64,000 nucleotides of DNA from Escherichia coli (GTDB taxonomy: Bacteria > Pseudomonadota > Gammaproteobacteria > Enterobacterales > Enterobacteriaceae): NCBI RefSeq assembly GCF_003334355.1, contig NZ_QOWP01000004.1. One strand, 5' to 3'. Each line of letters opens with the position of its first letter. The stretch's first letter is position 1. Below the pieces are notes generated by a model that did no database searches, was not told the origin of the DNA, and worked only from the letters and a program-made list of their open reading frames with translations. Shown one piece after another: positions 48,514-52,838 of this stretch. The position numbers were made by a program, and so were the translations under genes.

Positions 48514-49872
48514 TTAATTTCTTTGCGGTAACGTAATTCGGAACACATTATGCTTATTAAAATAGTGATACGTAGCACTTCCCCCATGCAATTCGGCAAT
48601 CGCTTTGACTAAAGAAAGACCAAGTCCCTGACCTTCGGAATGACGCGAATTATCTCCCCGCCAAAATCTACGGAAGAGTTTTTCAGGCTCATTAATTTTC
48701 GTTCCAGGACTGGCGATATCAATATTAAGATAGCCGTTGGTATCAAGAAAACTGGTTATATGAATGCGCGATTTTTCTGGTGAATATCTAATGGCATTAA
48801 CAATAAGATTCGATAACATTCGTTGCAGTAAAATTTTATCCGCAAAGATTTGCTGATTGCACTCGACCTTAAAGCAAATCTCTTTCTCGTCTGAAAGATA
48901 TTCAAGATAATCCAACAAATTTTCGACTTCCTTATTGAGAGAAAGCGAGTCCAGTTTCACCAAAACATTGTTTTTATCTGCCCGGGCAAGAAACAGTATG
49001 TTCTCTGTTAACCGCGAAATATTTTCCAGCTCTTCAATGTTACCGGCAATTGTTTTTTGATATTCAGCGATACTTCTGGTTTGACTGAGCGTAACCTGAT
49101 TCTGACCCAGTAATGCATTAATGGGCGTTCTAAGTTCATGAGCGAGATCGTCAGCAAATTGACTTAGACGCTCAAAATCTTTGACTAAAGCATGATGCAT
49201 TTTATTCAACGCCTGCCCAAGAGGTTTTAGTTCTCTCGGTAATGCGCTAACCTCAACAGGCTCCCGGCTATCGTTATAATTCAGCGCTTCCGTTACACCA
49301 CTCAACTTTTTGATCTCTCGTAATCCCGTTCTGATTAACAGCGGACTTAATACTGAGCAAAGTACAATGGCGACAATGCAAATTATAATGCTATTAATTT
49401 TATACTGTTCAAGCATGTTATGTCTGGCTGAAGCCAATTTAGCCACAGTAACCGTTAATGATGGCGAAACTTCATCAATATTAATTCGTAAAGCATCAAT
49501 CTCAGTATCATTAATAATGCTTCTGTAAATGCCAGCTGCGCTGATTGTCTCACTAGCAGGTATGTTATTTAACATGTCATCACTGACATTTGTCCGGTTA
49601 ACAATTTTATTGATGCCATCACCATGAATGATCAAGATATCCTGACTAACATCCATCATCCGGTTAAAGTATACAGGTAACGTATCTGGATTTACCCCAT
49701 CAATTAACAACTGCTTGATCTGTGCTGTCCGGTTAATGAGTGTTGTATCATCGCGCCATTTCAACTCACTTGCCAGGCCATTATAGAGAGTCCAGACAAT
49801 TCCAGCGCCAGCAACAGACAGCAGCAATATAAAAAGCAAGGTTAAACGGACGGTTATAGATAATCTTTTCAT
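48514..49872 (-). CDS. hprS: Sensor histidine kinase HprS/YedV (452 aa)
   Basis: H-box AHELRTP, HATPase motifs; two TM helices. Confidence 0.93.
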   Translation of the reverse strand: MKRLSITVRLTLLFILLLSVAGAGIVWTLYNGLASELKWRDDTTLINRTAQIKQLLIDGVNPDTLPVYFNRMMDVSQDILIIHGDGINKIVNRTNVSDDMLNNIPASETISAAGIYRSIINDTEIDALRINIDEVSPSLTVTVAKLASARHNMLEQYKINSIIICIVAIVLCSVLSPLLIRTGLREIKKLSGVTEALNYNDSREPVEVSALPRELKPLGQALNKMHHALVKDFERLSQFADDLAHELRTPINALLGQNQVTLSQTRSIAEYQKTIAGNIEELENISRLTENILFLARADKNNVLVKLDSLSLNKEVENLLDYLEYLSDEKEICFKVECNQQIFADKILLQRMLSNLIVNAIRYSPEKSRIHITSFLDTNGYLNIDIASPGTKINEPEKLFRRFWRGDNSRHSEGQGLGLSLVKAIAELHGGSATYHYFNKHNVFRITLPQRN

Positions 49873-50543
49873 TATTTTTTTACCGCTACGAATGAATAGC
49901 CCATCCCCCGGATTGTGGCGATTAGCTTTTCAGGAAAAGGATCATCAACTTTTGCGCGGAGCCTGCGAATGGCGACATCCACCGTATTGGTATCACTATC
50001 AAAGTTGATTCCCCAAATTTCACTCGCAATAACCGTTCTGGGTATAATTTCGCCAGCTCTGGAGGCCAGTAGCCAAAGTAACTGAAACTCCTTGCGCGTC
50101 AGTGTAATACTGATATTGTCCCTGCTCACACTTTGACTTACAGAGTCCATTCTTAAGCCACTGATTTCTAATGTTGAATTCAAAGCGTGATGTTGCCTTA
50201 ATTGTGCCCGAACCCTTGCCAGCAACTCAGAAAATGAAAAAGGTTTTACCAGATAATCATTTGCTCCACTGTCCAGCCCTCTGACTCTGTCATCGACAGA
50301 ATCCCTTGCAGTAAGGCAAATAACAGGGGTTTGCTTTGCTGTTCTTAACGTTTGTAAGATCTGCCAGCCATCCATACCCGGAAGCATAATATCCAGAATT
50401 ATCAATGCATAATCATCCTTCAGCGCAAGATAAAGCCCATCTCTGCCATCAGAAACGGCATCAATGACATAACCCGCTTCGGAAAGCCCCTGCGTTACCC
50501 ACTCCTGGGTCCTTTGATTATCTTCAATAAGTAAAATCTTCAT
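49872..50543 (-). CDS. hprR: OmpR-family response regulator HprR/YedW (223 aa); start at MKILLIEDN
   Basis: REC plus winged-helix domains; overlaps hprS start. Confidence 0.93.
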   Translation of the reverse strand: MKILLIEDNQRTQEWVTQGLSEAGYVIDAVSDGRDGLYLALKDDYALIILDIMLPGMDGWQILQTLRTAKQTPVICLTARDSVDDRVRGLDSGANDYLVKPFSFSELLARVRAQLRQHHALNSTLEISGLRMDSVSQSVSRDNISITLTRKEFQLLWLLASRAGEIIPRTVIASEIWGINFDSDTNTVDVAIRRLRAKVDDPFPEKLIATIRGMGYSFVAVKK

Positions 50544-50675
50544 GAAAATAATATGCCATAAATCATATGTTATAGAAACAGCCTGGTTCATTACAAAATT
50601 GTAATGCTGCTGTAAGGTTACCCTGGCCGCTTTTTCGCTATCCTCAAAACTCATTCACATGACAAGGATATAAAC

Positions 50676-51089
50676 ATGTTAAAGCGTTATTTAGTACTCT
50701 CGGTAGCAACGGCAGCATTTTCATTACCTTCTTTGGTTTATGCCGCACAACAAAACATTCTTAGCGTGCACATTTTGAACCAGCAAACCGGAAAACCCGC
50801 TGCTGACGTGACAGTCACTCTTGAAAAGAAGGCGGATAACGGCTGGTTACAACTTAATACCGCCAAAACAGATAAGGATGGACGAATTAAGGCACTGTGG
50901 CCCGAGCAAACTGCAACTACGGGCGATTACCGTGTCGTATTTAAAACCGGGGACTATTTCAAGAAACAAAATCTTGAAAGTTTCTTCCCTGAGATCCCCG
51001 TTGAATTTCATATTAATAAAGTGAACGAGCATTATCATGTGCCTTTATTACTTAGCCAATATGGGTATTCAACCTATCGTGGCAGTTAA
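50676..51089 (+). CDS. hiuH: 5-hydroxyisourate hydrolase HiuH/YedX (transthyretin-like, 137 aa, signal peptide)
   Basis: C-terminal YRGS motif typical of HIU hydrolases. Confidence 0.93.
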
Positions 51090-51197
51090 TGCATAAATAT
51101 GTAAAAGCAGATCTCTGCTACTGTTAGGGAGGACACTCCCTGACAGATTAACAGTAAACGGCTCTTGCTGGCTAACGACAAAAAAGTGTGATGGCTT

Positions 51198-52202
51198 ATG
51201 AAAAAGAATCAATTTTTAAAAGAATCAGATGTTACGGCCGAGTCGGTATTCTTTATGAAGCGTCGGCAGGTGTTAAAAGCACTGGGCATCAGTGCAGCTG
51301 CACTTTCTTTGCCTCACGCTGCGCATGCCGATCTGCTTAGCTGGTTTAAAGGGAACGATCGCCCGCCCGCCCCCGCCGGAAAACCGCTGGAGTTCAGCAA
51401 GCCTGCCGCCTGGCAAAATAACCTGCCACTGACGCCAGTAGATAAAGTCTCCGGTTATAACAACTTCTATGAATTCGGGCTGGATAAAGCCGATCCCGCC
51501 GCTAATGCTGGTAGCCTGAAAACCGATCCATGGACACTGAAAATCAGCGGCGAAGTGGCAAAACCATTGACCCTCGATCACGATGATTTAACCCGTCGCT
51601 TCCCGCTGGAAGAGCGTATTTATCGTATGCGCTGCGTGGAGGCATGGTCGATGGTGGTGCCGTGGATTGGTTTTCCGCTGCACAAATTGCTGGCGCTTGC
51701 CGAACCCACCAGCAATGCGAAGTATGTCGCTTTCGAAACAATTTATGCACCGGAACAAATGCCAGGCCAGCAGGACCGCTTTATCGGCGGCGGGCTGAAA
51801 TATCCTTATGTCGAAGGATTGCGTCTCGACGAAGCAATGCATCCGCTCACACTGATGACCGTGGGTGTTTATGGCAAGGCGTTACCGCCACAAAATGGCG
51901 CGCCGGTACGACTGATTGTGCCGTGGAAATATGGCTTTAAAGGGATTAAATCGATAGTCAGTATTAAGCTGACCCGCGAGCGTCCGCCAACCACCTGGAA
52001 TCTGGCAGCGCCTGACGAATACGGTTTTTACGCCAACGTTAATCCGCATGTTGATCACCCGCGCTGGTCACAGGCTACCGAACGATTTATTGGTTCAGGC
52101 GGCATCCTCGATGTTCAGCGCCAGCCAACGCTACTGTTTAATGGTTACGCCGACCAGGTGGCATCGCTGTATCGTGGCCTGGATTTGCGGGAGAATTTCT
52201 GA
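51198..52202 (+). CDS. msrP: Periplasmic methionine sulfoxide reductase catalytic subunit MsrP/YedY (334 aa), Tat signal
   Basis: Twin-arginine motif RRQVLKALG; molybdopterin oxidoreductase family. Confidence 0.95.
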
Positions 52203-52838
52203 ATGCGTCTGACAGCAAAACAGGTGACATGGCTGAAAGTTAGCCTGCATCTTGCCGGATTGTTGCCGTTTCTCTGGCTGGTCTGGGCGATCAATCACGG
52301 TGGACTGGGTGCCGATCCGGTGAAAGATATTCAGCATTTTACCGGTCGCACTGCACTGAAATTTTTGCTGGCGACCTTGTTAATCACACCTCTGGCACGC
52401 TACGCAAAACAGCCGTTATTGATACGCACTCGCCGCCTGTTAGGCTTATGGTGCTTTGCCTGGGCGACACTGCATTTAACCAGTTACGCATTGCTGGAGC
52501 TGGGCGTGAATAATCTGGCGTTATTAGGCAAGGAGTTAATTACCCGGCCTTATTTAACGTTAGGAATTATCAGCTGGGTTATTTTGCTTGCTTTAGCGTT
52601 TACTTCAACCCAGGCGATGCAGCGAAAACTCGGCAAGCACTGGCAACAGTTGCATAATTTCGTCTATCTTGTCGCGATCCTGGCCCCAATACATTATCTG
52701 TGGTCAGTGAAGATTATTTCACCGCAGCCGCTCATCTACGCTGGGCTGGCTGTACTGCTTTTAGCCTTACGGTATAAGAAGTTGCGTTCCCTTTTTAACC
52801 GGTTACGCAAGCAGGTTCACAACAAATTATCTGTATAA
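52203..52838 (+). CDS. msrQ: Heme-binding membrane subunit MsrQ/YedZ (211 aa)
   Basis: ORF track; polytopic membrane protein immediately after msrP. Confidence 0.95.

Follow-up and report, generated by a model that had tools for sequence, protein, structure and literature searches.

The segment from 48,514 to 52,838 of a 64,000-nt stretch of the Escherichia coli contig NZ_QOWP01000004.1 (assembly GCF_003334355.1; the whole stretch is called here the window) carries, with a probability of about 0.96, the canonical E. coli hprRS/hiuH-msrPQ envelope oxidative-stress module in an intact and very probably functional form. Direct support for this reading comes from gene identity, intactness, domain content, key residues, an exact operator in the place where it has been described, and a conservation that is almost universal in E. 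coli. What is said below of signal specificity, phosphotransfer, enzymology and feedback we infer from the literature.

The module is organised in two divergent units. On the minus strand lie hprS (yedV; 48514-49872), which according to RefSeq and K-12 annotation encodes a membrane sensor histidine kinase of 452 aa, and hprR (yedW; 49872-50543), encoding an OmpR-family response regulator of 223 aa. A control region of 132 bp (50544-50675) separates them from the plus-strand genes hiuH (yedX; 50676-51089), for a periplasmic transthyretin-like hydrolase of 137 aa, msrP (yedY; 51198-52202), for a molybdopterin methionine-sulfoxide reductase of 334 aa exported by the twin-arginine translocation (Tat) pathway, and msrQ (yedZ; 52203-52838), for the haem-binding membrane partner of MsrP (211 aa). 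Between hiuH and msrP there is a spacer of 108 nt (51090-51197). An earlier note, made from the sequence alone, had described five intact genes with the regulatory pair divergent from hiuH-msrP-msrQ, and both statements stood: the gene boundaries are those annotated by RefSeq in strain PSS-12 (99.9% identical; coordinate in that locus, L001, equal to window position minus 44999) and in K-12 MG1655 for all five genes, the divergent spacer runs from 50544 to 50675 as written, and base-by-base comparison gave for every gene the K-12 length, an ATG start, a proper stop and zero internal stops. The overlap that the note placed between hprR and hprS amounts to 1 nt, with the hprR stop lying on the hprS start (TAATG). 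Its 1-nt gap between msrP and msrQ, the one error in the note, was off by one: the junction reads TGAATG, with 0 intervening bases.

Compared with the K-12 MG1655 locus (b1968-b1972), the window has the same gene order, orientation, gene lengths, junctions and lengths of both spacers. The two sequences differ by 69 nucleotides in the coding regions, which translate into 13 amino acid differences (1-5 per protein), and by one substitution in the divergent spacer that falls outside the operator, whereas the hiuH-msrP spacer is 100% identical; upstream of the module, K-12 carries the yedS pseudogene where the window has an intact porin gene. Literature comparison also bears out the view of the earlier note that this is a known system, namely a K-12-like E. 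coli hprRS-hiuH-msrPQ. A megablast search with positions 48000-53500 against all complete E. coli genomes matched the region in 5421 of 5426 of them, with coverage of at least 80% in 5409. Under the top hit, which is 99.9% identical, the annotated features are hprS, hprR, hiuH, msrP and msrQ. Since the DNA is 99.7-99.9% identical across many independent isolates, the alleles of the window are standing alleles. The genome searches further showed that most of the region is missing from roughly 5-17 of the 5426 genomes, that an IS903B element is inserted within the module in a few E. coli (for example H10, NZ_CP070930.1) and that 7-9 matches to the region, at 60-90% identity, lie on plasmids.

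Domain searches upheld the families assigned to the five genes: four of the proteins score above equivalog cut-offs, HprS scores above a subfamily cut-off, and the Pfam architectures are as expected. All positions known from mutagenesis to be important are retained. HprS reached 319.2 bits with the NCBIfam heavy-metal sensor kinase subfamily model TIGR01386 (curated cut-off 292.55) and contains the Pfam domains HAMP, HisKA and HATPase_c. Its residues Met72, Met73, Met100, Met153 and Cys165 are present, as is His245 of the H-box, within a HELRTP motif. Hydrophobic segments are found at about residues 8-26 and 162-180; the loop with Met72 and Met153 lies between them and Cys165 lies in the second. 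The protein is 98.9% identical to K-12 HprS, with the differences S86G, G99D, S380G, V413E and L438F. HprR scored 483.3 bits with the HprR equivalog NF008567 (cut-off 353), the model covering residues 1-223 of 223, and has the domains Response_reg (PF00072, residues 3-112) and Trans_reg_C (PF00486, residues 146-218). Asp51 is present in a DIMLP motif, and H137Q is the sole amino acid difference from K-12. A longer version of hprR in a mechanical list of open reading frames (260 aa, reaching 50654) was rejected because it would cross the operator and because the 223-aa form fills the HprR model. No recognisable Shine-Dalgarno sequence was found for hprR at 50520-50560. In the same interval a TATTAT hexamer ends 6 nt before the hprR ATG, and K-12 has the same sequence there. 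Such a sequence would be consistent with a transcript that is leaderless or has a very short leader.

Regarding the enzymes, HiuH exceeded the cut-offs of two hydroxyisourate hydrolase equivalogs (NF011610, 295.5 against 217; TIGR02962, 150.5 against 87.45), contains the Pfam Transthyretin domain (PF00576) and ends in a YRGS tail. Its hydrophobic N-terminus is a signal peptide; the match to the solved structures PDB 2g2n/2igl (E ~1e-76) begins at residue 23 or 24, and the solved chains begin at residue 24. There is a Tyr at mature position 111 and no Met in residues 24-137, and N22Y is the difference from K-12. A 2026 preprint ties both Tyr111 and the lack of Met in mature HiuH to urate hydroperoxide degradation (PMC13252058). 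MsrP scored 508.3 with the equivalog NF003767 (cut-off 207) and has the domain Oxidored_molyb (PF00174) together with a weak TAT_signal hit and a twin-arginine motif, RRQVLK, at residue 22. It matches the solved E. coli YedY structure PDB 1xdq over residues 45-334 (E = 1e-201) and differs from K-12 by T34A, A63P, A81V, Y284H and A319D. The starting points of the structure matches, residue 45 in MsrP and 23/24 in HiuH, fit cleaved export signals. The single Cys of MsrP, at position 146, corresponds to Cys102 of the mature chain, and we take it to be the Mo ligand of the YedY structure paper. MsrQ scored 240.9 with the equivalog NF003831 (cut-off 130), has the Ferric_reduct domain (PF01794, residues 47-161) and multiple hydrophobic segments, and differs from K-12 by C14S; a sequence search returned no relative of it among solved structures. 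His91, His151 and His164 are present in MsrQ, and these are presumably the haem-binding histidines of the literature. The anatomy of hiuH-msrPQ, with a 108-nt spacer lacking a canonical terminator and with msrP abutting msrQ, is compatible with tricistronic transcription. In K-12, the three genes are co-transcribed, as determined by reverse transcription PCR (bioRxiv 2021.09.09.459708).

The regulatory link between the two units is an operator, the HprR/CusR box CATTACAAAATTGTAATG, located at 50589-50606. It is a perfect inverted repeat with 8-nt arms (CATTACAA/TTGTAATG) and spans positions -87 to -70 relative to the hiuH ATG (50676-50589=87; 50676-50606=70). Allowing up to 3 mismatches, the box is unique in the 64-kb window, with 0.09 occurrences expected by chance. 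Its sequence is letter-for-letter that published for HprR/CusR (YedW) (PMC9302797, Fig 1 legend), and its spacing from hiuH is exactly the published one (bioRxiv 2021.09.09.459708); the search for an HprR box at 50544-50675, which the earlier note had proposed as a check, therefore recovered all 18 bp of the known box, without a mismatch and at the spacing given in the literature. K-12 MG1655 carries the identical box at the identical position. HprR has been found to bind the hiuH promoter of enterohaemorrhagic E. coli (EHEC) both in vivo and in vitro, by chromatin immunoprecipitation and electrophoretic mobility shift assays (PMC13064566).

The scheme available in the literature would connect these parts as follows. 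HprS, a histidine kinase of the inner membrane whose periplasmic loop bears Met72 and Met153, would respond mainly to reactive chlorine species (hypochlorous acid (HOCl), N-chlorotaurine and chlorite) and, according to a 2026 preprint, also to urate hydroperoxide, and would phosphorylate HprR at Asp51. HprR would then bind the palindrome, whose centre lies 78.5 bp ahead of the hiuH start codon, and activate the tricistronic hiuH-msrP-msrQ transcript; CusR, the copper-responsive paralogue, would recognise the same box and induce the operon more weakly and in a copper-dependent way. HiuH, which a Sec-type signal peptide directs out of the cytoplasm and which lacks Met in its mature form, would degrade urate hydroperoxide or 5-hydroxyisourate (HIU) in the periplasm, and Tat-exported MsrP would use its molybdoenzyme chemistry to reduce protein-bound methionine sulfoxide with electrons received through the haem-containing membrane protein MsrQ. 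Finally, MsrP may re-reduce HprS, which would constitute a negative feedback. Published work describes several of these steps: substitutions of Met72 and Met153 lock HprS on and MsrP appears to exert negative feedback on HprS (bioRxiv 2021.09.09.459708), CusSR provides the weaker copper-dependent induction through the shared box (PMC9302797), MsrP is a molybdenum-molybdopterin enzyme that reduces protein-bound methionine sulfoxide with reducing power supplied by the haem protein MsrQ (PMC9805139), and HiuH degrades urate hydroperoxide, within a five-gene architecture reported as conserved across E. coli (PMC13252058). As far as sequence can tell, no part of this scheme is at odds with the window.

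To what signal does the module respond? Whether the physiological signal is hydrogen peroxide (H2O2), reactive chlorine species or urate hydroperoxide is debated in the literature. The original basis of the name Hpr was the idea that HprSR is primarily a sensor of H2O2 acting through Cys165, a residue present in the window. Earlier work, to the extent that it is summarised in bioRxiv 2021.09.09.459708, described H2O2 induction and a requirement for Cys165, and hprR and hiuH mutants are sensitive to H2O2 (PMC13064566). However, in the study of El Hajj et al. (bioRxiv 2021.09.09.459708) reactive chlorine species were a much better signal than H2O2, HOCl and N-chlorotaurine inducing far more strongly, and Cys165 was described as a non-conserved residue located in the membrane with a role in signal transduction rather than in sensing, so that we regard a primary peroxide sensor as unlikely. 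A different view would make the module chiefly an arm of the copper response, in which CusR dominates at the shared box and MsrP protects Met-rich copper proteins such as CusF. The box is indeed common to CusR and HprR, it recurs 54-142 bp upstream of CopR/CusR-like regulator genes of other bacteria among the matches listed in the survey described below, and CuSO4 induces msrP about 4-fold in a cusRS-dependent, hprRS-independent manner (PMC9302797). Nevertheless, the HOCl/HprSR induction is about 60-fold compared with those 4-fold for copper (PMC9302797), oxidant induction in K-12 has already been shown to survive deletion of cusRS and to be abolished by deletion of hprRS, and it is hprRS that lies adjacent to the operon, divergently transcribed and conserved with it in E. 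coli and E. albertii. We consequently see little probability in a module dominated by copper. The likeness to the CusSR/cusCFBA copper-silver system is nonetheless real, as the proteins belong to the heavy-metal subfamilies TIGR01386 and TIGR01387 and CusR reads the same box, but CusSR differs in target operon and in signal, and HprR and HprS are not CusR and CusS, since HprR scores 254.6 with the CusR equivalog (cut-off 420) and HprS 185 with the CusS model (cut-off 423).

It could also be argued that HiuH is merely a purine-catabolic HIU hydrolase that happens to precede msrPQ and is no partner in oxidant defence. HiuH matches the hydroxyisourate hydrolase equivalogs, keeps the YRGS signature and retains HIU hydrolase activity in vitro (PMC13252058). 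Set against this, HiuH is a Met-free periplasmic protein whose gene shares a transcript with msrPQ and responds to the same regulator; it degrades urate hydroperoxide, and periplasmic PucM is no substitute for it (PMC13252058, a preprint); a purely catabolic role seems to us improbable. Lastly, intact reading frames might hide at least one gene that is functionally impaired by missense polymorphisms, given the 13 amino acid differences from K-12. None of these differences touches a known functional residue, every protein scores far above its family cut-off, and DNA with 99.7-99.9% identity recurs in many independent isolates, which leaves such an impairment very improbable.

Taken together, these comparisons favour an intact canonical oxidative-stress module, with a few caveats. 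A promoter and terminator scan of 48300-53200 found no sigma-70 consensus promoter in the divergent region; the absence fits an activator-dependent promoter, without being positive evidence for one. The NCBIfam search returned no HprS-specific equivalog model, so that the identity of HprS rests on the subfamily model together with its 98.9% identity to K-12 HprS. The 13 missense differences from K-12 may bear on function: two of those in HprS, S86G and G99D, fall in the periplasmic loop, and G99D adjoins Met100, a residue reported to be dispensable, whereas in HiuH the N22Y change occupies position -2 of the signal-peptide cleavage site. No sequence feature was found that argues against the assignment to the canonical module itself.

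Apart from the genes and the operator, the module contains a conserved structure within the hiuH-msrP spacer. The RNA of this 108-nt spacer folds with -36.5 kcal/mol (z = -5.1 compared with shuffled controls), and the main element of this structure is an 11-bp stem, CTGTTAGGGAG/CTCCCTGACAG, at 51121-51146, whose two strands occupy 51121-51131 and 51136-51146. When nine E. coli alleles and E. albertii were compared, 0 of the 22 stem positions were variable, in comparison with 26 of the 86 non-stem columns (Fisher p = 0.001); the 4-nt loop occurred as three alleles, GACA, GTGA and AACT, and the flanks varied too. No compensatory changes were seen in the stem among these sequences, and in consequence an RNA structure and a DNA palindrome are indistinguishable. 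As one further Escherichia species is found among the box matches listed, the covariation test of this hairpin is underpowered. The hairpin was rejected as an intrinsic terminator given the absence of a U-tract after the stem, and as a dispersed repeat, as a second copy was not found within the 64-kb window. An Rfam scan of 44000-58000 placed no RNA family inside the module. The hairpin is not mentioned in bioRxiv 2021.09.09.459708, and a literature search on hiuH with small RNAs (sRNAs) or stem-loops brought up unrelated papers only. One possibility, to which we give limited credence, is that it represents an uncharacterised cis-element: a barrier to 3'-exonucleases or a processing site that sets the HiuH:MsrPQ ratio, a partial attenuator, or a protein-binding DNA palindrome. 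If this were true, it would give a well-studied operon a second, post-initiation layer of control, and the conserved hairpin offers a modest lead, open to test, on how expression might differ among the genes of the operon.

How far does the box extend beyond E. coli? Species-representative genomes (298 Gb) were scanned for CATTACAANNTTGTAATG, which gave at least 120 matches, in a search space where 16 specified bases would occur some 140 times by chance. The following counts refer to the matches listed. In 77 loci there is no related gene nearby. At 16 loci, all of them in Proteobacteria (L005, L007, L016, L018, L024, L026, L028, L039, L040, L068, L069, L074, L080, L085, L096 and L111), the gene of a regulator that shares 43-96% identity with HprR begins 54-142 bp from the centre of the box, which suggests that regulators of the CopR/CusR/HprR group in Proteobacteria have this operator in common and probably use it for autoregulation. 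Of these loci, E. albertii (L005) is the sole one with all five genes of the module, and both box and spacing are unchanged there; a Halomonas locus (L074) combines hprR, the box and hiuH but lacks msrP. In around 15 loci of Firmicutes/Tenericutes (L017, L021, L073, L086, L064, L106, L060, L006, L048, L019, L042, L067, L107, L056 and L118), the core ACATTACAAnnTTGTAATGT is located between a regulator-kinase pair and the gene of an ATP-binding cassette (ABC) transporter ATPase, about 1.67-2.1 kb past the start of a regulator with only some 30% identity to HprR. This core we take to be a BceR-type operator. The putative BceRS-type systems of Firmicutes, with bceAB-like ABC transporters, also consist of an OmpR-family regulator and a kinase, but their likeness to HprRS is confined to the operator core: the target is the ABC-transporter ATPase gene, and hiuH and msrPQ are absent. 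Besides these groups, three Verrucomicrobia contigs from metagenome-assembled genomes (L003, L057 and L063) carry the exact box immediately downstream of an HprRS-like gene pair, and L003 carries two copies of it, at 10624-10641 and 10869-10886, 245 bp apart.

Two probable 3'-end structures flank the module. The convergent spacer between hchA and hprS, 107 bp in length, holds a 10-bp GC-rich hairpin, GCAGCCACGT/ACGTGGCTGC, followed by a T-run (48443-48480; recognised from sequence and fold), which is likely an intrinsic terminator for hchA on the plus strand and possibly also the 3' end of hprRS on the minus strand. On the other side, a hairpin resembling a repetitive extragenic palindromic (REP) element, GCCGGATGCGGCG...CTATCCGGC, lies on the plus strand 33 nt after msrQ (52872-52901; likewise from sequence and fold) and probably marks the 3' end of the hiuH-msrPQ transcript or stabilises it. 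A consensus scan of 48300-53200 found no terminator after hiuH or msrQ, a scan that proves nothing either way; from the missing terminator calls we infer REP-type 3' ends. Further away, an OmpC-like porin gene, whose counterpart in K-12 MG1655 is the yedS pseudogene, is intact at 45859-46962 (annotated start at about 45889), and the sRNA rseX lies just upstream of it at 45488-45577 (Rfam, 97.7 bits). Together with two tRNAs it accounts for the Rfam hits in 44000-58000, all of which fall outside the module. Near the end of the window, yeeJ, an inverse autotransporter adhesin gene, lies downstream of tRNA-Ser, mtfA and tRNA-Asn. Collinearity with PSS-12 stops at about 63869 and the whole query gave a median of 14 matches per genome, and an insertion sequence (IS) element, IS1-like in other hits, is suggested to start at the window edge (about 63870-64000).

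The system described here is a textbook one, already known and nearly universal in E. coli, and there is nothing unusual about it in the window. Its value is one of annotation: the source strain keeps a complete periplasmic oxidant-defence module, whose presence brings no new biology by itself. Recent work connects this module with survival under gut inflammation and with colonisation by EHEC.

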